Source: Escherichia coli
Lineage (GTDB): Bacteria; Pseudomonadota; Gammaproteobacteria; Enterobacterales; Enterobacteriaceae
DNA length: 64,000 nt
Reading direction: 5' to 3' (one strand)
Assembly: GCF_045037415.1 (NCBI RefSeq)
Contig: NZ_CP173438.1
Shown here: positions 5,534 through 24,618 of the stretch, in pieces
Layout of the letters: each line of letters opens with the position of its first letter
Position numbering within the stretch: position 1 is the stretch's first letter
Program-made: the position numbers and the translations under genes
Notes under the pieces: generated by a model
Databases searched by the model: none
The model's input: the letters and a program-made list of their open reading frames with translations, nothing else
Told to the model about the DNA's origin: nothing

Positions 5534-8500
5534 TTACACCTCCACGCGGCCCAGCAGATAATGATGATGCTGGTGGACATGGCTAATGATGCGGCACATA
5601 TCGTTCAGCTCCGGTGGTACGTTGTTGAACTGACCTTCGCTGTCGATGTTTAACACCCAGCTTTGGTTATTCAGACGTACGCGTACCCGGCAATCTTCCA
5701 CAAGGAAGCCTGGGTTACTGCTGTTATCAAAGTCTTGCGACAGGCTGAAGACGGTGATTTTGTCTTTGTACGGTTTACCGTTCCACGGGCAGAATTGGGC
5801 GCAGTTGCCGCATTCGTTGCAGTAGGCATCGAGATGCAGCGTCTGGAAACGGTTCTGGAAGCCAGGAACCGCAATGGATACGTTGGCGCGGTTCGGGCAG
5901 ACATCCACACACTTGCTGCAAACGTAGTTACATTCAAGGCAGCGTGCGGCTTCCTGTGCGACAAACGCGTCACGATCGTCACTGTTCACCAGAGTGACAG
6001 AGATATCGCCTTTACGTTGATAGATTTCCGCCGGATTTACGTTGTTCCAGTATTTATCGTTCTGGTGGGAACGGATATTTTCCCGACTAAGGATGGTATC
6101 GGTCGCCCGACGCGCGGTTCCGACAGCAGCGACAATGGAGGATGGTCCGCGCTGTACGTCGCCGATCATAAAGACGTCAGTCAGACGCGTTTCGCCATTA
6201 TGGTCGACGTCTGGCCAGCCGTTTTTGTCCAGCGGCACGCCCATCGCATTCAGGGCTTCAGTATCCTGCTGTTCACCAATGGCGGTGATCAGACTGTCCA
6301 CATGCAGTGTTACTGTTTCGTTGGTTTCAACCGGACGGCGACGACCTTTCTCATCAGGTTCGCCAAGCGACATAACGCGCAAGGTTAAGGTGCCATCAGC
6401 ATCGAAACGTTCCGGATTATTCAGAAAACGGAACTCCACGCCGTCGTGCAACGCTTCTTCATACTCTTCGCGCCATGCGGGCATTTCTTGCAGTGAACGA
6501 CGGTAAACGACCGTTGCTTTTTCTACGCCTGGAACGCGTAACGCCGCACGAGCGCAGTCCATTGCGGTGTTACCCGCCCCGACAACGACCACATGTTTGC
6601 CCAGCTTGAGCGCGGTGCCCTTGTTGTATTCACGCAGGAAAGGGAGTGATTTCCAGACATTTTGGTTGTCGCCCGCCAGTTTCACACCGCTATTTTTATC
6701 AGTGCCGGTGGCAATCAGAACATAGTGGAAGCCCTGATTTTTTAACTGTTCAACGGTCAAATCGGGTGAGCAACCGTACTCAAATTTCACGCCGTGAGCG
6801 GCAACAAAATCGATATCGTGCTGAATTAACTCTGCAGGAATACGGAACTGAGGAATGATATTTTTCACCACGCCGCCCGCATTGGCTTCGCGTTCAAACA
6901 GCGTGACCGGATGGCCCGCTCTGGCAAGGAAGTAACCTGCGGCCAGACCCGCCGGACCTGCACCAATCACGGCTACCGGATGGCGTGAACCGGAACCGGC
7001 TGGTTTGTGCCAGCGTTGCTTATATTCATCCCAACCTTTTTCCAGGGCGACTTTTTTCAGTTCGCGGATATTCAGCGCACTGTCGTAATCCAGGCGGGTA
7101 CAGTTGTATTGGCACTGGTGATCGCAAATATGACCGGTAATGGCGGGCAGGGCGTTGCGTTGATAGATGAGTTCCAGCGCGTCGGCATAGCGGTGTTCGC
7201 CAAGCAGACGGATGTATTCCGGAATATCTTGCTTGATAGCGCAGGCAGTAACACAGGGGGCAACGTAGCAATCGGTCAGCGGCAGGTCTTCAGCCACTTC
7301 AATACGCTCTTCTGGCTTCCAGTGTTTCTGGGTGTATTCCATGGTTAACGCGTCTGCTGCCAGTCTGTTCAGTCGTTCGACGTCAACGTGGTTAAGCTCC
7401 CAGGCGTCGGAGCCTTCCAGCTCGCGCATGCAGGCACTTAAGCGCAGATAGCCGCCAGGTTTCAGCAGGTCGGTTGCCATAGTAATAGGGCGAATACCAG
7501 TATCAAAAATATCGCGGATAGTCAGCTGACTGGCACCACCGGAATAAGAAATGGGCAGTTTGCCGTCAAAGGCGCGAGAGAGAACTGCTGCAACGTTGAT
7601 GGAGAGCGGGAACAGCGCACGGCCTGACATATACATCTCTTCACCGGGCAGTGCGCCTTTATTGTTGATGGTGCCGAGAGTGTTAGTCAGTTTTACGCCA
7701 AAGCCGAGTGATTTTTCTTTTGCCAGTGCCATCAGGCGTTCCAGCATTTCCAGTGCTTGCGTCAGCTTGAGGTCGTGATCAAATGACTCTTCTTTTAAGC
7801 CGATGTAACCGAAACCGCAGACATCGAGGATCTCACGAACACGCGCGTACCCCAGTAAGGTCGGGTTGAGTTTCACAAAGGTGTTGAGTCCTTTTTCTTC
7901 CAGCATGTAGCGGCAAATGGCTTCGATTTCATGCGGAGGACAGCCGTGCATGGTGGAGAGGGTAACACCTTGTACCATGCTGGTGGGGATGCGAGCGGGT
8001 AAGGCTTGCAAGCTTTCGCGTTTTTCCTGCAATCCGTGGCGGGCTAAAAATGCCTCATCCTGGAGTAGCTTATTAAGTGCATCGCGGTATTGAGCGAATT
8101 TCGGATGGTCAGATGCGTCCATCATATTGTCGATGAACTGCTGCATCGGCGGTTGCTTAATACCTTCGAGGTTGTAACCGACGCTCATATTAAAGATGAA
8201 CGATTTACCGGAATCAGAAGGCTGGAACATCGCTTCGAGAAGGTGCAGGGCAAACCAGGCTTTGAGGTATTCATCCCAGGCTTTAAGCAGGGTAAATTCG
8301 GTAGACCATTCGGTGTTAAAGCACTCGTCTTCGGCATCGATACAGGGCTTTTCCAGCTCCAGACGGTCAAGAATTTGGACGGTTTTTAGTTCGATGAAGC
8401 GTCCGCCAGTCAGCCAGGAAGTGACAATATTTTGCGCGAGTTGCGTGTGCGGGCCAGCGGCAGGGCCGACGGGAGTGGCACAGGTTTCACCGAAGACGCT

Positions 8501-8632
8501 AACAGTTTTACTTTTTACGGGTGAGTAAAACTGTTGCTCGGGAATACCAAAGATTGAGCGTTGTTGTTGGTATTCATCAAATATGCGCGTCAAAAGTTCC
8601 TCAAACGGAATGGGACGCATAATATCCCCCAT
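5534..8632 (-). CDS. ygfK: Large Fe-S flavoprotein YgfK: N-terminal DPD/PyrD-like barrel + GltD/PreT-like NAD(P)H/FAD module + C-terminal 2x[4Fe-4S] ferredoxin
   Basis: 1032-aa ORF. It contains dinucleotide folds VAVIGAGPAGLAAG and VVVVGAGNTAMD, the GltD-like Cys cluster CYVAPCVTAC...CDHQCQYNC, and the C-terminal motifs CSKCVDVCP and CNECGNCAQFCP. Recognised as E. coli YgfK. Confidence 0.95.
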   Translation of the reverse strand: MGDIMRPIPFEELLTRIFDEYQQQRSIFGIPEQQFYSPVKSKTVSVFGETCATPVGPAAGPHTQLAQNIVTSWLTGGRFIELKTVQILDRLELEKPCIDAEDECFNTEWSTEFTLLKAWDEYLKAWFALHLLEAMFQPSDSGKSFIFNMSVGYNLEGIKQPPMQQFIDNMMDASDHPKFAQYRDALNKLLQDEAFLARHGLQEKRESLQALPARIPTSMVQGVTLSTMHGCPPHEIEAICRYMLEEKGLNTFVKLNPTLLGYARVREILDVCGFGYIGLKEESFDHDLKLTQALEMLERLMALAKEKSLGFGVKLTNTLGTINNKGALPGEEMYMSGRALFPLSINVAAVLSRAFDGKLPISYSGGASQLTIRDIFDTGIRPITMATDLLKPGGYLRLSACMRELEGSDAWELNHVDVERLNRLAADALTMEYTQKHWKPEERIEVAEDLPLTDCYVAPCVTACAIKQDIPEYIRLLGEHRYADALELIYQRNALPAITGHICDHQCQYNCTRLDYDSALNIRELKKVALEKGWDEYKQRWHKPAGSGSRHPVAVIGAGPAGLAAGYFLARAGHPVTLFEREANAGGVVKNIIPQFRIPAELIQHDIDFVAAHGVKFEYGCSPDLTVEQLKNQGFHYVLIATGTDKNSGVKLAGDNQNVWKSLPFLREYNKGTALKLGKHVVVVGAGNTAMDCARAALRVPGVEKATVVYRRSLQEMPAWREEYEEALHDGVEFRFLNNPERFDADGTLTLRVMSLGEPDEKGRRRPVETNETVTLHVDSLITAIGEQQDTEALNAMGVPLDKNGWPDVDHNGETRLTDVFMIGDVQRGPSSIVAAVGTARRATDTILSRENIRSHQNDKYWNNVNPAEIYQRKGDISVTLVNSDDRDAFVAQEAARCLECNYVCSKCVDVCPNRANVSIAVPGFQNRFQTLHLDAYCNECGNCAQFCPWNGKPYKDKITVFSLSQDFDNSSNPGFLVEDCRVRVRLNNQSWVLNIDSEGQFNNVPPELNDMCRIISHVHQHHHYLLGRVEV

Positions 8633-8711
8633 AACCCTCTCCTTAGCTTATACAGATATCATTGAGTGACCGGTGTTGAGAAATCCGGTGGTTTAGGGGG
8701 ATAGAGCAACA

Positions 8712-8731
8712 ATCGCACCACTCTTGCCAGG
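8712..8731 (-). promoter_or_regulatory. Candidate sigma54 (-24/-12) promoter for ygfK-ssnA-ygfM-xdhD
   Basis: The minus strand reads cCTGGCAAGAGTGGTGCGa. GG and GC have the correct GG-N10-GC spacing of TGGCAC-N5-TTGCW. The site is about 85-100 nt upstream of the ygfK ATG, and a sigma54 activator gene (ygeV) lies in the cluster. Confidence 0.35.
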
Positions 8732-8953: not shown

Positions 8954-9532
8954 CTAAATTTCAGTATACCTTTTCTTCGCTGTAATAAAGTCGTCCGGAG
9001 TATCAATATCTAAAATTATTTCTGCATTTTCTATTTCGACGGAATAATGTTCTCCCATAAGGAGTGCCTGACGCATATTGGTGACATTGGGGCGCTGGAT
9101 TGCCTGCATCAGGCATGGTTTTGACACTAAAATCGGATGGCCGGGGATGCCATTATGGAGTGGCAGTATTGCGCCATCATTTCGTAACGACCAGATTTTT
9201 CTAAAAATATCGATGGTGAGGGTTGGCATATCTCCGTGGGTGAGAAAACAATGTTCTGTTTGCACCGCGGGTACTGCGGCCTTTACTGATGTCAGTAAAC
9301 CCTGCGCATAATCTGGGTTGTGGATAATAGTGATATTGCTCTGGTTCGCATAACGTTCGTGCAGTTCATTACCACGATAGCCGGTGACTAAAATAATTCG
9401 GCTACAAAACTGCAACGCATTTTTGATACTTGTATCAAGAATTGTTCCCTGTTGCCAGGGTAACATCATTTTCCATTGCCCCATTCTTGATGATAATCCT
9501 GCGGCGGTAATTATACAGTCGATGGCTGACAT
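8954..9532 (-). CDS. mocA: Molybdenum cofactor cytidylyltransferase MocA (YgfJ)
   Basis: 192-aa ORF with a MobA-like nucleotidyltransferase N-terminus (IITAAGLSSRMG). Recognised as E. coli MocA, which makes the MCD cofactor used by xanthine-dehydrogenase-family enzymes. Confidence 0.93.
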   Translation of the reverse strand: MSAIDCIITAAGLSSRMGQWKMMLPWQQGTILDTSIKNALQFCSRIILVTGYRGNELHERYANQSNITIIHNPDYAQGLLTSVKAAVPAVQTEHCFLTHGDMPTLTIDIFRKIWSLRNDGAILPLHNGIPGHPILVSKPCLMQAIQRPNVTNMRQALLMGEHYSVEIENAEIILDIDTPDDFITAKKRYTEI

Positions 9533-9635
9533 AGTGATTCCATTATTTACAGGAGCTAATAACGCCTGATAATTGCGTTACTTCCTGATGGATTACGTTG
9601 AGGGTAATTTATCCCAGAGAGGTCCATAAAGACGC

Positions 9636-10406
9636 GTGAAAAGTATAATTGACCCATCGGCATTATTCATTGATTTAGGCGCGCAGAAACGTCCCACTGT
9701 GATTTCTATTGTTGGTGCTGGGGGGAAAACCAGCTTGCTTTTTTGGCTGGCAGAACTGTTCCAGGCGAGTGGCAGGCGTGTATTAATCACTACGACGACA
9801 CATATGTTTATGCCAACATCTCACTGGCCCGTGGTTTTCTGTCGTGATCCCGCCATGCTTCCTCATGCGTCTTTTATATCCCCCATTTCATTTTGTTTTC
9901 ACTGCTGGAAAGCGAACCAGGGAAAAGTGCAGGGATTTACGCCAGAAGCGATTGATGCACTGGTACAACGACCAGAGTGTGACGTAATTCTCATTGAGGC
10001 AGATGGCTCGCGTGGAATGCCGTTAAAAGCGCCTGATGAGCACGAACCTTGCATACCTAAAAGCAGTTGCTGCGTGATTGCTGTGATGGGAGGACATATT
10101 TTGGGTGCGAAAGTGAGCACAGAAAATGTCCATCGCTGGTCGCAGTTTGCTGATATTACTGGGTTAACACCTGATGCACCCTTGCAACTGAGCGATCTCG
10201 TTGCGCTGGTTCGCCACCCTCAGGGCGCGTTTAAAAACGTACCGCAAGGTTGTCGGCGAGTCTGGTTCATTAACCGTTTTTCTCAATGTGAGAATGCGAT
10301 TGCGCAAAGCGAGCTCCTTCAACCGCTGCAACAACACAACGTAGAGGCAATCTGGCTGGGCGATATACAAGAACATCCTGCAATCGCGCGCAGATTTGTG
10401 AATTAG
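9636..10406 (+). CDS. yqeC: Probable selenium-dependent hydroxylase accessory protein YqeC (P-loop NTPase)
   Basis: 256-aa ORF with a GTG start and Walker A motif VGAGGKTSLL. Recognised as E. coli YqeC. Confidence 0.9.
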   Translation: MKSIIDPSALFIDLGAQKRPTVISIVGAGGKTSLLFWLAELFQASGRRVLITTTTHMFMPTSHWPVVFCRDPAMLPHASFISPISFCFHCWKANQGKVQGFTPEAIDALVQRPECDVILIEADGSRGMPLKAPDEHEPCIPKSSCCVIAVMGGHILGAKVSTENVHRWSQFADITGLTPDAPLQLSDLVALVRHPQGAFKNVPQGCRRVWFINRFSQCENAIAQSELLQPLQQHNVEAIWLGDIQEHPAIARRFVN

Positions 10407-10453
10407 CGGCCCGGGTATTCCGGGTTACTGAAAGGATATCCATTGAGGTTGGT

Positions 10454-12079
10454 ATGAATATTTTCACAGAGGCTGCAAAACTCGAAGAGCAAAATTGTCC
10501 GTTTGCGATGGCGCAAATTGTTGATAGCCGAGGCTCAACCCCCCGCCATTCTGCACAAATGTTAGTGCGCGCCGATGGTTCTATCGTCGGTACAATTGGT
10601 GGCGGAATGGTTGAGCGGAAGGTGATTGAAGAGTCGCTTCAGGCATTGCAGGAACGTAAGCCGCGATTATTCCATGGACGTATGGCTCGTAACGGTGCGG
10701 ATGCTGTCGGGTCAGATTGTGGAGGTGCAATGTCAGTATTTATCAGCGTCCATGGTATGCGTCCACGTCTGGTGTTGATTGGTGCGGGGCATGTCAACCG
10801 GGCGATAGCCCAGAGTGCGGCGCTATTAGGATTTGATATCGCCGTTGCCGATATTTATCGCGAAAGCCTCAATCCTGAACTATTCCCACCATCAACCACG
10901 CTTCTCCATGCTGAGTCGTTTGGTGCGGCAGTGGAAGCACTGGATATTCGCCCTGATAATTTTGTCCTGATTGCCACGAATAATCAGGATCGTGAAGCCC
11001 TCGACAAACTCATTGAACAACCCATTGCATGGCTGGGGTTGCTGGCAAGTCGCCGCAAGGTTCAGCTTTTCCTACACCAATTGCGTGAGAAAGGCGTGGC
11101 TGAAGAACATATTGCCCGTTTACATGCGCCCGTTGGTTACAACATAGGTGCGGAAACGCCGCAGGAGATCGCCATCAGCGTGCTGGCAGAAATATTACAG
11201 GTGAAAAATAACGCGCCGGGTGGGCTGATGATGAAGCCTTCTCATCCTTCCGGACACCAGCTGGTGGTGATTCGCGGTGCGGGGGATATCGCCAGTGGTG
11301 TAGCGCTACGTCTGTATCATGCGGGTTTTAAAGTGATCATGTTGGAAGTGGAAAAACCGACAGTGATTCGTTGTACCGTGGCGTTTGCCCAGGCCGTGTT
11401 CGATGGCGAAATGACGGTCGAAGGCGTCACCGCCCGCCTGGCAACCAGCTCTGCGGAAGCGATGAAACTTACCGAACGCGGATTTATCCCTGTGATGGTA
11501 GATCCCACCTGTTCATTGCTTGATGAACTGAAACCGCTTTGCGTGGTGGACGCTATTCTGGCGAAACAGAATTTGGGAACGCGGGCAGATATGGCACCAG
11601 TAACAATCGCGCTTGGGCCGGGCTTTACTGCAGGGAAGGATTGTCATGCGGTAATTGAAACAAATCGCGGGCACTGGCTCGGTCAGGTGATTTACTCAGG
11701 TTGTGCGCAGGAGAATACCGGTGTTCCCGGCAATATTATGGGGCATACCACCCGACGAGTGATCCGCGCTCCTGCTGCAGGCATTATGCGATCCAACGTG
11801 AAATTAGGCGATCTGGTGAAAGAGGGCGATGTCATTGCCTGGATTGGTGAGCATGAAATTAAAGCACCGTTGACGGGGATGGTGCGTGGCTTGTTGAACG
11901 ACGGACTGGCCGTGGTCGGTGGTTTTAAAATTGGTGATATCGATCCTCGTGGTGAAACGGCTGATTTCACCAGCGTTTCTGATAAAGCCCGGGCGATTGG
12001 CGGCGGCGTACTTGAGGCGTTAATGATGTTGATGCATCAGGGCGTTAAAGCGACAAAAGAAGTGCTGGAAGTGGCTTAA
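10454..12079 (+). CDS. yqeB: Selenium-dependent molybdenum hydroxylase system protein YqeB (XdhC/CoxI-like maturation domain + C-terminal domain)
   Basis: 541-aa ORF. The N-terminal half resembles the XdhC/CoxI Moco-insertion chaperone family with a Rossmann-like segment (LVLIGAGHV). Recognised as E. coli YqeB. Confidence 0.9.
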   Translation: MNIFTEAAKLEEQNCPFAMAQIVDSRGSTPRHSAQMLVRADGSIVGTIGGGMVERKVIEESLQALQERKPRLFHGRMARNGADAVGSDCGGAMSVFISVHGMRPRLVLIGAGHVNRAIAQSAALLGFDIAVADIYRESLNPELFPPSTTLLHAESFGAAVEALDIRPDNFVLIATNNQDREALDKLIEQPIAWLGLLASRRKVQLFLHQLREKGVAEEHIARLHAPVGYNIGAETPQEIAISVLAEILQVKNNAPGGLMMKPSHPSGHQLVVIRGAGDIASGVALRLYHAGFKVIMLEVEKPTVIRCTVAFAQAVFDGEMTVEGVTARLATSSAEAMKLTERGFIPVMVDPTCSLLDELKPLCVVDAILAKQNLGTRADMAPVTIALGPGFTAGKDCHAVIETNRGHWLGQVIYSGCAQENTGVPGNIMGHTTRRVIRAPAAGIMRSNVKLGDLVKEGDVIAWIGEHEIKAPLTGMVRGLLNDGLAVVGGFKIGDIDPRGETADFTSVSDKARAIGGGVLEALMMLMHQGVKATKEVLEVA

Positions 12080-12087
12080 ATGAAAAT

Positions 12088-12113
12088 GGCCGGATGGTAT
12101 TACCCATCCGGCC
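12088..12113. terminator. Bidirectional hairpin between convergent yqeB and yqeA
   Basis: GGCCGGATGG-tatta-CCCATCCGGCC, about a 10-bp GC-rich stem, occupying nearly the whole 40-bp convergent gap. Confidence 0.6.
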
Positions 12114-18340: not shown

Positions 18341-18358
18341 TAACAATAAGTGTGCCAG
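18341..18358 (-). promoter_or_regulatory. Candidate sigma54 promoter for the ygeW-ygeX-ygeY-hyuA-yqeA operon
   Basis: The minus strand reads TGGCAC-actta-TTGTT, a perfect -24 element with correct spacing, but the -12 is TTGT rather than TTGC. It is about 95 nt upstream of the ygeW ATG. A second GTGCCA at 18301..18306 has a poorer -12. Confidence 0.25.
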
Positions 18359-24166: not shown

Positions 24167-24618
24167 GCATGATTCACCCGTAGCGGTTGCTTCCCGCGCT
24201 TCCATAGAAATCCCCTCGGTTTGAACATTTGGTTCTTATGGCAAAGATTTAGTCTTAGCAGGCAAGAATTACGCCAGAAACGACTATATGCGTGAGGGGA
24301 GGAAGGAAGTGTGATGACGTTAAAAAAACACAGATATGATACGAAACAGGACTCTGAATAGGGACAGTGATACGTATCAATATGAGTGGCGATAAAATCA
24401 ATGTGATAAATTAGGATTATTACGCATCAAGGTGGGAAATAGGGTAAAAGTCAGGAAATTCGATACCACTACAGCAAATATTTTGCTGATGATACTTCCC
24501 TTTGCCAAATGAAATTAACCTCTTTCTCTATTACATCGTTTTTCCAGAAGCAAGAGATTGGGTATCAAGAGGCTGGCTGCTATGATATGGCGTCTTGTTT
24601 TTTAAGCGAGGAAAGATT

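Follow-up and report, generated by a model that had tools for sequence, protein, structure and literature searches.

How selenium is brought to the molybdenum centre of bacterial hydroxylases is the question raised by a three-gene module of Escherichia coli, made up of mocA, yqeC and yqeB. We analysed this module (3126 bp, positions 8954-12079) within a 64,000-nucleotide stretch of contig NZ_CP173438.1 (assembly GCF_045037415.1), hereafter the window. Among the three routes by which bacteria utilise selenium, the one that delivers labile selenium to a molybdenum centre is understood least and has stood open for decades. It is also topical: the selenium-dependent 2,8-dioxopurine pathway lets gut bacteria remove urate, a capacity that matters for gout and for engineered probiotics. 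The module is complete in E. coli, and this is the organism in which selenium insertion can be solved most easily. On balance, our analysis of fusions, gene neighbourhoods, folds and conserved residues leads us to favour the view that MocA, YqeC and YqeB probably provide four modules of a single assembly line, which makes the selenium-bearing molybdopterin cytosine dinucleotide (MCD) cofactor of xanthine-oxidase-family hydroxylases.

The module itself is already known. Haft & Self reported in 2008 that TIGR03309, the family of the C-terminal half of YqeB, is confined to selD-positive genomes and is often fused to XdhC, and they proposed TIGR03309, TIGR03172 (YqeC) and TIGR03310 (YgfJ/MocA) as accessories of selenium-dependent molybdenum hydroxylases; the restriction to selD-positive genomes was strict for TIGR03309 and looser for YqeC (PMC2276186). 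The set of SelD, YqeB and YqeC was later used as the signature of the "Se-cofactor trait" (PMC5029168). An initial annotation of the window, which read YqeB and YqeC as markers of such hydroxylases, is in line with these publications: it is the Haft & Self / Zhang 2008 hypothesis, which is built into the RefSeq product names. The annotation also held that neither protein has an assigned biochemistry and that the mechanism of selenium insertion is unknown. This stands in so far as we found neither an assignment nor a mechanism in the literature searched to 2026, and the authors of PMC11448449 call the mechanism unknown and describe YqeB and YqeC as being without known predicted domains. It is incomplete in that genetic data now exist for Clostridioides difficile, where deletion of yqeB phenocopies selD mutants on xanthine and urate, deletion of yqeC gives no phenotype and yqeB alone restores a yqeB yqeC double mutant only in part (PMC11448449).

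The biochemical context of the module has been established as well. The flanking operons encode the 2,8-dioxopurine (reductive urate) pathway, in which E. coli XdhD-YgfM acts as urate reductase, forming 2,8-dioxopurine, which YgfK reduces in turn (PMC12507026; bioRxiv 10.1101/2025.04.24.650524). In Clostridium sporogenes, the XdhD orthologue DOPDH shows no activity after purification from a selD mutant, and the xanthine dehydrogenase (XDH) of that species also needs SelD (bioRxiv 10.1101/2025.04.24.650524). A published test of yqeB, yqeC or mocA mutants of E. coli on urate was looked for and not found, including in the Liu, Kasahara and Life Metabolism papers.

Fusions and gene neighbourhoods link MocA, YqeC, YqeB and XdhC

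Firstly, we established the identity of the enzyme that makes the dinucleotide cofactor. The mocA (ygfJ) open reading frame (ORF; 8954-9532, minus strand) encodes a CTP:Mo-molybdopterin cytidylyltransferase of 192 aa; RefSeq names the gene mocA. MocA matches TIGR03310 over aa 5-184 of 192 with 215.9 bits (cut-off 186.45), a full-length equivalog match, and PF12804 with an E-value of 1.7e-28. CTP-specific cytidylylation of molybdenum-molybdopterin (Mo-MPT) was shown for the E. coli enzyme by Neumann et al. 2009, as related in PMC2997495.

Secondly, we looked at the partners to which YqeC is fused. An exhaustive profile search returned 5792 YqeC relatives; we used the 150 best representatives for the analysis of fusions and aligned 146 representatives. 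In 16 of the 150, YqeC is fused to a MocA-like NTP transferase (NTP_transf_3), and the fusion exists in both orders (7 MocA-YqeC and 9 YqeC-MocA). One further representative, P0373 (541 aa), is a fusion of YqeC with the C-terminal domain (C-domain) of YqeB.

Thirdly, we examined the surroundings of the YqeB C-domain. A scan of one genome per species gave at least 591 confirmed stretches, and we analysed 79 loci, spanning Enterobacterales, Vibrionaceae, Aeromonas, Spirochaetota, Clostridia, Coriobacteriia and Denitrovibrio. Fifty of the 79 are Collinsella-like, which reduces the effective sample to about 30 lineages, and this subset shows the same pattern. YqeC lies no more than 1.5 kb from the YqeB C-domain in 76 of the 79 loci. 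XdhC is fused to the N-terminus of the YqeB C-domain in 17 (Enterobacterales, Aeromonas, Vibrionaceae, Endozoicomonas and some Spirochaetota), and an XdhC-type protein is encoded by the adjacent gene in 53 (Coriobacteriia, Clostridia). Urate-pathway or hydroxylase genes are present at 61 loci, while selD is found within 10 kb at four. In one locus, L083, the genes stand in the order molybdenum hydroxylase, XdhC, FAD/FeS subunit, molybdenum subunit, YqeB C-domain (281 aa, 49% identical to that of E. coli) and YqeC-MocA fusion. In C. difficile, yqeC adjoins mocA and not yqeB. Taken together, fusions and neighbourhoods connect MocA with YqeC, YqeC with the C-domain of YqeB, and this domain with XdhC.

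The L083 locus also carries, 1.2 kb downstream of the fusion operon, a gene for a class-V aminotransferase of the cysteine desulfurase / selenocysteine lyase family (10598-11686 of that locus, minus strand). It echoes the selenocysteine-lyase-like gene that Haft & Self noted beside selD in E. faecalis (PMC2276186).

YqeC is a SIMIBI-class GTPase-like protein

The yqeC gene (9636-10406, plus strand) starts with GTG and encodes a P-loop NTPase of 256 aa, with 143.3 bits against PF19842 (E 8e-42; cut-off 27.6) and 236.2 bits against TIGR03172 (cut-off 73.05). The P-loop read earlier from the sequence is confirmed: the Walker A / G1 motif VGAGGKTSLL spans aa 26-35 (9711-9740, plus strand), and GxGGKT is found in 144 of the 146 aligned representatives. 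The invariant or nearly invariant residues of the family are G27xGGKT32, T52-T55, K97, G100, E121-A-D123-G124, K131, E137-P138, R167, G197, K200 and N213. The last of these opens a stretch (213-216) whose consensus is N-K-x-D; of the 146 sequences, 142 have the N, 100 the K and 92 the D. An AlphaFold model built from a 35-sequence alignment (pLDDT 91.7) was compared with known structures by Foldseek, which retrieved SRP54/SR, MeaB, UreG and the IcmF G-domain, at TM-scores that are low (about 0.3-0.5, normalised to the query); HypB was among the structural matches as well. Neither sequence nor profile searches found a solved homologue of YqeC.

A Glu-type Walker B (hhhhExxG) together with the NKxD guanine-specificity motif reportedly marks the G3E GTPases, as Leipe et al. 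are said to have set out in 2002. In the YqeC family, E121xxG124 is a Walker B of the Glu type and NKxD is a consensus, and the family looks like one of GTPases because this consensus is the guanine-specificity motif. We read YqeC as a GTPase-like protein of the SIMIBI class that stands nearest to SRP/FtsY, MeaB and UreG. The E. coli protein itself is without NKxD. It has the degenerate G4 motif NRFS instead (10272-10283, plus strand), as seen in the translation and the family alignment, and NRFS or a similar tetrapeptide is found in the gammaproteobacterial relatives, where K and D are lost clade-wide. This loss suggests that the nucleotide specificity of gammaproteobacterial YqeC may have changed or been relaxed.

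Could YqeC itself handle the selenium? Selenophosphate could be the ligand of its P-loop, or YqeC could transfer a phosphoryl group to activate the Mo-oxo group, much as SIMIBI enzymes of the BioD and PurA types do with oxygen atoms, and the YqeB C-domain would then be only a scaffold or docking domain. We regard this as quite unlikely. The yqeC deletion of C. difficile is silent, while that of yqeB equals the loss of selD (PMC11448449), and strict confinement to selD-positive genomes is a property of TIGR03309 rather than of YqeC (PMC2276186). Moreover, NKxD is typical of regulatory GTPases, and the commonest fusion partner of YqeC is MocA, not SelD or YqeB. We also considered Cys139, in the motif HEPC, as a selenium carrier and rejected it. 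It is invariant in 35 gammaproteobacterial sequences but replaced by Val in 101 of the 146 representatives, so it is not a catalytic or carrier residue of the family as a whole; indeed, the 146 aligned representatives have no conserved cysteine.

Two further observations concern the family and its name. Seven homologues of 304-394 aa (P0249, P0251, P0252, P0254, P0259, P0261 and P0272) match the profile in two stretches, because an insert of about 60-150 residues separates their Walker A/TTTT segment from the K97 region. In addition, the Bacillus subtilis protein called 'YqeC' (PMC2700814) is 6-phosphogluconate-dehydrogenase-like and unrelated to YqeC of E. coli, so that the two are mixed when texts are searched by name.

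YqeB joins an XdhC-type half to the TIGR03309 domain

YqeB (541 aa; 10454-12079, plus strand) was expected to be a fusion of an XdhC/CoxI-like half with a second domain, and profile matches bear this out and identify the second domain as TIGR03309. The N-terminal half (10487-11194, plus strand) is an XdhC-family chaperone of the molybdenum cofactor (Moco), composed of XdhC_CoxI (PF02625, E 9.8e-20, aa 12-74) and the Rossmann domain XdhC_C (PF13478, E 3e-34, aa 106-247), with 2we7 (E 4e-27) and 3on5 as relatives in the Protein Data Bank. YqeB is a member of the XdhC family and not a canonical XdhC orthologue, scoring 111.6 bits against the XdhC equivalog TIGR02964, under the cut-off of 161.6. 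The C-terminal half (aa 271-526; 11264-12031, plus strand) covers the whole 256-position TIGR03309 model at 417.4 bits, against a cut-off of 220.

The C-domain of E. coli is 52-77% identical to those of 46 aligned homologues, including that of Moorella, and 35 columns of this alignment (A1; YqeB residue numbers are alignment positions + 259) are invariant. The invariant residues include G277 and D278 in the GAGD loop, R306, E323, D350, D366, K371, N373, E402 and R405, then R435, R478, K492, D495, D497, R499, D510, K511 and E521, and H407 is nearly so (at least 90%). Three parts make up the domain: a Rossmann-like subdomain, which bears the GAGD loop, a biotinyl-like subdomain with the barrel-sandwich hybrid fold, and a long C-terminal helix that closes it. 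The GAGD loop is like dinucleotide-binding loops, with a match to STEAP3 (E 0.004) and weak ones to F420_oxidored and Pyr_redox. No solved relative of the C-domain was found by sequence or profile search.

Three explanations of this domain were tried and discarded. A cysteine relay is contradicted by the alignment, where no column has Cys in more than 66% of the 47 sequences; in the polypeptide as a whole, conservation of cysteine is highest at C89, which lies in the DCGG motif of the XdhC half and has Cys as its counterpart in 61 of 72 partner XdhC sequences. Descent from a duplicated XdhC Rossmann domain received an hhalign probability of 20.7%, from β1-αA-β2 elements only. A role as biotin/lipoyl carrier followed a lead from Johnstone & Self, who noticed that YqeB is 29% identical to AccB. 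The identity is accounted for by the biotinyl-like barrel of the C-domain, and the fold does match, but the hairpin lysine is not conserved: the columns between G199 and A212 of alignment A1 are variable, with no conserved Lys at the hairpin tip.

A putative assembly line for the selenium-bearing cofactor

These observations can be arranged into an ordered scheme. The first step is known from the work of others: MCD arises when MocA attaches CMP to Mo-MPT. In the second, to judge from fusions, synteny and fold, YqeC would partner both MocA and YqeB physically, its nucleotide binding or hydrolysis probably gating or speeding the hand-over of fresh MCD. It would act as an SRP / G3E-type NTPase, presumably a GTPase in most lineages, and as the MCD-branch counterpart of MobB, helpful and not strictly essential. 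The silent yqeC deletion of C. difficile would make sense on this account, MobB being a dispensable helper in E. coli. In the third step, as membership of the XdhC family suggests, the N-terminal half of YqeB would hold MCD. In the fourth, the least certain, the TIGR03309 half would carry out selenium-specific chemistry on the chaperone-bound cofactor. Most likely this would be an exchange of the terminal oxo or sulfido ligand of molybdenum for selenium, with SelD providing selenophosphate, and the work would fall to Arg, Lys, Asp, Glu and His residues, not to a relay through a cysteine perselenide. We assign the selenium step to this half because it is reported to co-occur strictly with selD, because yqeB and selD mutants of C. 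difficile are equivalent and because its many invariant Arg, Lys, Asp and Glu residues would suit phosphorylated ligands. In the fifth step, the finished cofactor would be inserted into XdhD-YgfM and probably also into XdhABC, since YqeB is the only E. coli XdhC homologue besides PaoD and both clostridial enzymes need SelD.

Our confidence in the specific chemistry of the TIGR03309 domain is lower than in the scheme as a whole. More tentatively still, TIGR03309 might represent a new, cysteine-independent type of selenophosphate:Moco selenotransferase, made up of a Rossmann-like dinucleotide-binding subdomain and a biotinyl-like barrel and acting while the cofactor is on its XdhC chaperone. YqeC would be a hitherto unrecognised delivery GTPase ('MocB') coupling the synthesis of MCD by MocA to this transfer, and the two would share a physical channel with the YqeB C-domain and XdhC. 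Were this more elaborate proposal true, such a channel would explain why the modules are found fused in pairs in different lineages.

Several points weigh against the assembly line. Haft & Self noted that no labile-selenium enzyme had been seen in E. coli (PMC2276186), and we found in the literature no report of selenium in E. coli XdhD or XdhABC, none of a selenium dependence of XdhD and none of ligand binding by YqeB or YqeC. The transfer of selenium from selenophosphate to molybdenum is proposed by analogy only. The sole YqeC-YqeB fusion, P0373, comes from one metagenome contig of 2.1 kb, and in C. difficile yqeB and yqeC are unlinked to each other and to selD. YqeC is not detectably homologous to MobB beyond their common P-loop class, whether by sequence, profile or structure search, and for the E. 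coli protein, which has no NKxD, a preference for GTP is less certain. Finally, growth of E. coli on urate needed added selenium and molybdenum, but this requirement is confounded: urate degradation in E. coli is linked to formate, and formate dehydrogenase H contains selenocysteine.

The foremost rival takes up the first of these points. In it, the E. coli module is independent of selenium. YqeB would be an XdhC-type chaperone that holds MCD, and helps to sulfurate it, for XdhABC and XdhD, the TIGR03309 half would have another dinucleotide-related role such as reducing the cofactor with NAD(P)H or protecting it, and YqeC would be a general MCD helper. No selenium-containing molybdenum hydroxylase has been demonstrated in E. 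coli (PMC2276186), and the study in which active XdhD-YgfM was purified from this organism mentions selenium once and does not discuss dependence on it (PMC12507026). The resemblance of the GAGD loop to NAD(P)- and F420-binding loops would suit such a role, and Peng et al. allow that YqeB or YqeC alone may serve processes unrelated to selenium (PMC5029168). We nevertheless consider selenium independence unlikely. In diverse phyla, TIGR03309 is confined to selD-positive genomes (PMC2276186), loss of yqeB in C. difficile equals loss of selD (PMC11448449), and the orthologous enzyme of C. sporogenes strictly needs SelD (bioRxiv 10.1101/2025.04.24.650524). The C-domain of E. coli also shares its 52-77% identity with those of organisms bearing the selenium trait, and the selenium requirement for growth on urate, confounded as it is, points the same way.

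Within the assembly line, which we continue to favour, the range of clients can also be read more narrowly. From the position of the genes between the xdhD operon and the ring-cleavage operon, it had been argued that they are likely to mature XdhD specifically. This part of the initial annotation is not supported, and we think it unlikely to be right. In its favour, urate-pathway genes accompany the YqeB C-domain in 61 of 79 loci, a conserved linkage. The C. difficile yqeB mutant also speaks for it, since it loses the benefit of urate fully and that of xanthine only partly (PMC11448449). On the other hand, that mutant shows yqeB to be needed on both purines, and in C. sporogenes XDH and DOPDH alike depend on SelD. 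For XdhABC, E. coli offers no XdhC-type chaperone other than YqeB, PaoD being the one further XdhC homologue, and a 2010 review suggested that XdhD and XdhABC may share YqeB (PMC2997495). MocA supplies MCD in general, and xdhABC lies about 8 kb away under a sigma-54 promoter, like ygfK and ygeW.

With the fusions, the fold assignments, the GTPase motifs and the lack of a conserved cysteine, what had been a correlation between two markers becomes an ordered hypothesis. If it is true, overexpression of the urate pathway for therapy would require mocA, yqeC, yqeB, selD and the selenium supply to keep pace.

Genomic setting and sigma-54 control of the module

The three ORFs lie exactly where the initial annotation had put them, with mocA divergent from yqeC and yqeB, and the names given to them agree with the profile matches and with RefSeq. 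A gap of 103 bp separates mocA from yqeC, and yqeB follows in the same direction as yqeC after 47 bp. The hydroxylase and ring-cleavage operons expected at the flanks are indeed there, in the order ygfK-ssnA-ygfM-xdhD on one side and yqeA(arcC)-hyuA-ygeY-ygeX(dpaL)-ygeW on the other. The 3126-bp stretch is chromosomal and 100% identical to several complete E. coli genomes. The module was found in 5175 of 5426 complete genomes of the species, where RefSeq names the genes mocA, yqeC and yqeB; it has no match in the other 251 and is not universal in E. coli.

Transcription of yqeB has a start of its own. Within yqeC lies an intragenic sigma-54 promoter that drives yqeB, TGAGCACGAACCTTGCA (10037-10053, plus strand), an exact 17-mer match to a site that Bonocora et al. 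validated by mutation, chromatin immunoprecipitation with quantitative PCR, RT-qPCR and Western blot (PMC4591121). With two silent mutations in this site, sigma-54 no longer bound, the level of yqeB mRNA fell and YqeB protein could not be detected; the transcript was induced under nitrogen limitation (PMC4591121). The promoter therefore makes yqeB a separately controlled member of the sigma-54 purine-catabolism regulon. The same study gives sigma-54 sites upstream of ygfK, ygeW, xdhA and ygfT. We located that of ygfK in the mocA-ygfK gap (8705-8721, minus strand; exact match to site OS31), that of ygeW at 18342-18357 (minus strand) and that of xdhA at 24261-24277 (minus strand; one mismatch to the MG1655 sequence). 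With the ygfK, ygeW and xdhA sites and the one inside yqeC, the purine region forms a single sigma-54 regulon around ygeV, a gene for an enhancer-binding protein. Since the ygfK operon has its own sigma-54 promoter in between, mocA is not simply the first gene of that operon. For yqeC, a consensus scan of the mocA-yqeC gap gave a sigma-70-like promoter candidate (TTTACA-16-GATAAT, 10/12 matches; 9546-9573, plus strand), which is a pattern match only, as sigma-70-like sites are no more numerous in the region than in shuffles. A strong bidirectional intrinsic terminator hairpin (12088-12113) starts 9 bp past the end of yqeB and is common to the convergent yqeA/arcC; GC pairs make up 8 of the 10 bp of its stem, and both strands have T-runs.

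The intragenic promoter has a bearing on Cys139. The site overlaps YqeC codons D134-I140 (DEHEPCI), and the -12 element (TTGCA) of the promoter (window 10035-10055) is spelled by the Pro-Cys-Ile codons CCT TGC AT. These are kept exactly, synonymous positions included, in 10 of 10 gammaproteobacterial genera checked; the comparison covered loci L003-L012 and L015. In Endozoicomonas, the only non-Cys YqeC for which DNA was recovered, the protein has Val at this point (GAG CCG GTT) and the -12 element is absent. The clade-specific cysteine may thus be tied to the promoter rather than to the function of the protein.

Disrupted versions of the locus also came to light. In E. coli NZ_OW968277.1, the module match at 3978311-3982689 overlies ISEc52, an IS3-family element, and the annotation has both an 'XdhC family protein' and a yqeB entry; this looks like a natural disruption of yqeB. 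In the Arsenophonus endosymbiont of Aleurodicus floccissimus (L011), the cluster xdhD-ygfK-mocA-yqeC-yqeB-yqeA-hyuA-ygeY-ygeX-ygeW is broken into many short ORF pieces, consistent with pseudogenisation in an insect endosymbiont. The cluster of E. coli ECGI0523 (L002) is fragmented likewise, and there sequencing frameshifts are more likely.

A last reading starts from YgfK (5534-8632, minus strand), which RefSeq names 'putative selenate reductase subunit'. That name is outdated, as two 2025 studies make it a flavin-dependent 2,8-dioxopurine reductase. The product name, and an alternative discussed in PMC2276186, would cast mocA, yqeC and yqeB as accessories of selenate reduction or selenium detoxification. 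We find this hardly credible and have ruled out the selenate-reductase version, because YgfK has its role in urate degradation; the phylogenetic argument of PMC2276186 opposes it as well.

Comparison with known systems

Parts of the proposed assembly line have counterparts elsewhere. The barrel-sandwich hybrid fold of the YqeB C-domain is that of AccB-type biotinyl/lipoyl domains, to which it is related in fold and not as a carrier. The pairing of YqeC with MocA is like that of MobB with MobA, for in both cases a MobA-like nucleotidyl transferase and a small SIMIBI P-loop protein are recurrently fused (for MobA/MobB, NCBIfam NF011056 and NF011059). MobB, a GTP-binding helper of MobA, is dispensable in E. 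coli (PMC13197769), as yqeC is in C. difficile. YqeC differs from MobB in its larger size (256 aa), its extra invariant residues and its link to YqeB. We found no sequence or specific structural signal that would make the two homologous and dropped that idea; the analogy is functional only.

In fold class, the Glu-type Walker B (ExxG) and the NKxD of the family, YqeC resembles the delivery GTPases of the G3E/SRP type, namely UreG, HypB and MeaB/IcmF. Unlike them, it has no Pfam match to the cobW or MeaB families and no conserved Cys/His metal-binding motif. The eukaryotic Moco sulfurases ABA3 / MOCOS combine NifS-like and MOSC domains and put the chalcogen on Moco held by their own binding domain. 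YqeB is comparable in being a dedicated two-domain protein that would act before the cofactor reaches xanthine-oxidase-family enzymes; the folds are unrelated, and where ABA3 / MOCOS use pyridoxal phosphate and a cysteine persulfide, the YqeB C-domain has no conserved cysteine.

The closest parallel is with the XdhC systems themselves, XdhC with a NifS-like cysteine desulfurase for XDH in Rhodobacter capsulatus and PaoD for PaoABC in E. coli, since the N-terminal half of YqeB is truly of the XdhC family. In the XdhC/NifS system, the cofactor receives its terminal chalcogen on the chaperone, before insertion into the enzyme (PMC2997495), and the logic that we propose for YqeB is the same. What sets YqeB apart is that its chaperone is fused or adjacent to the TIGR03309 domain, which has no counterpart in the sulfur system, and that, by analogy, the chalcogen would be selenium from selenophosphate in place of sulfur from a persulfide.

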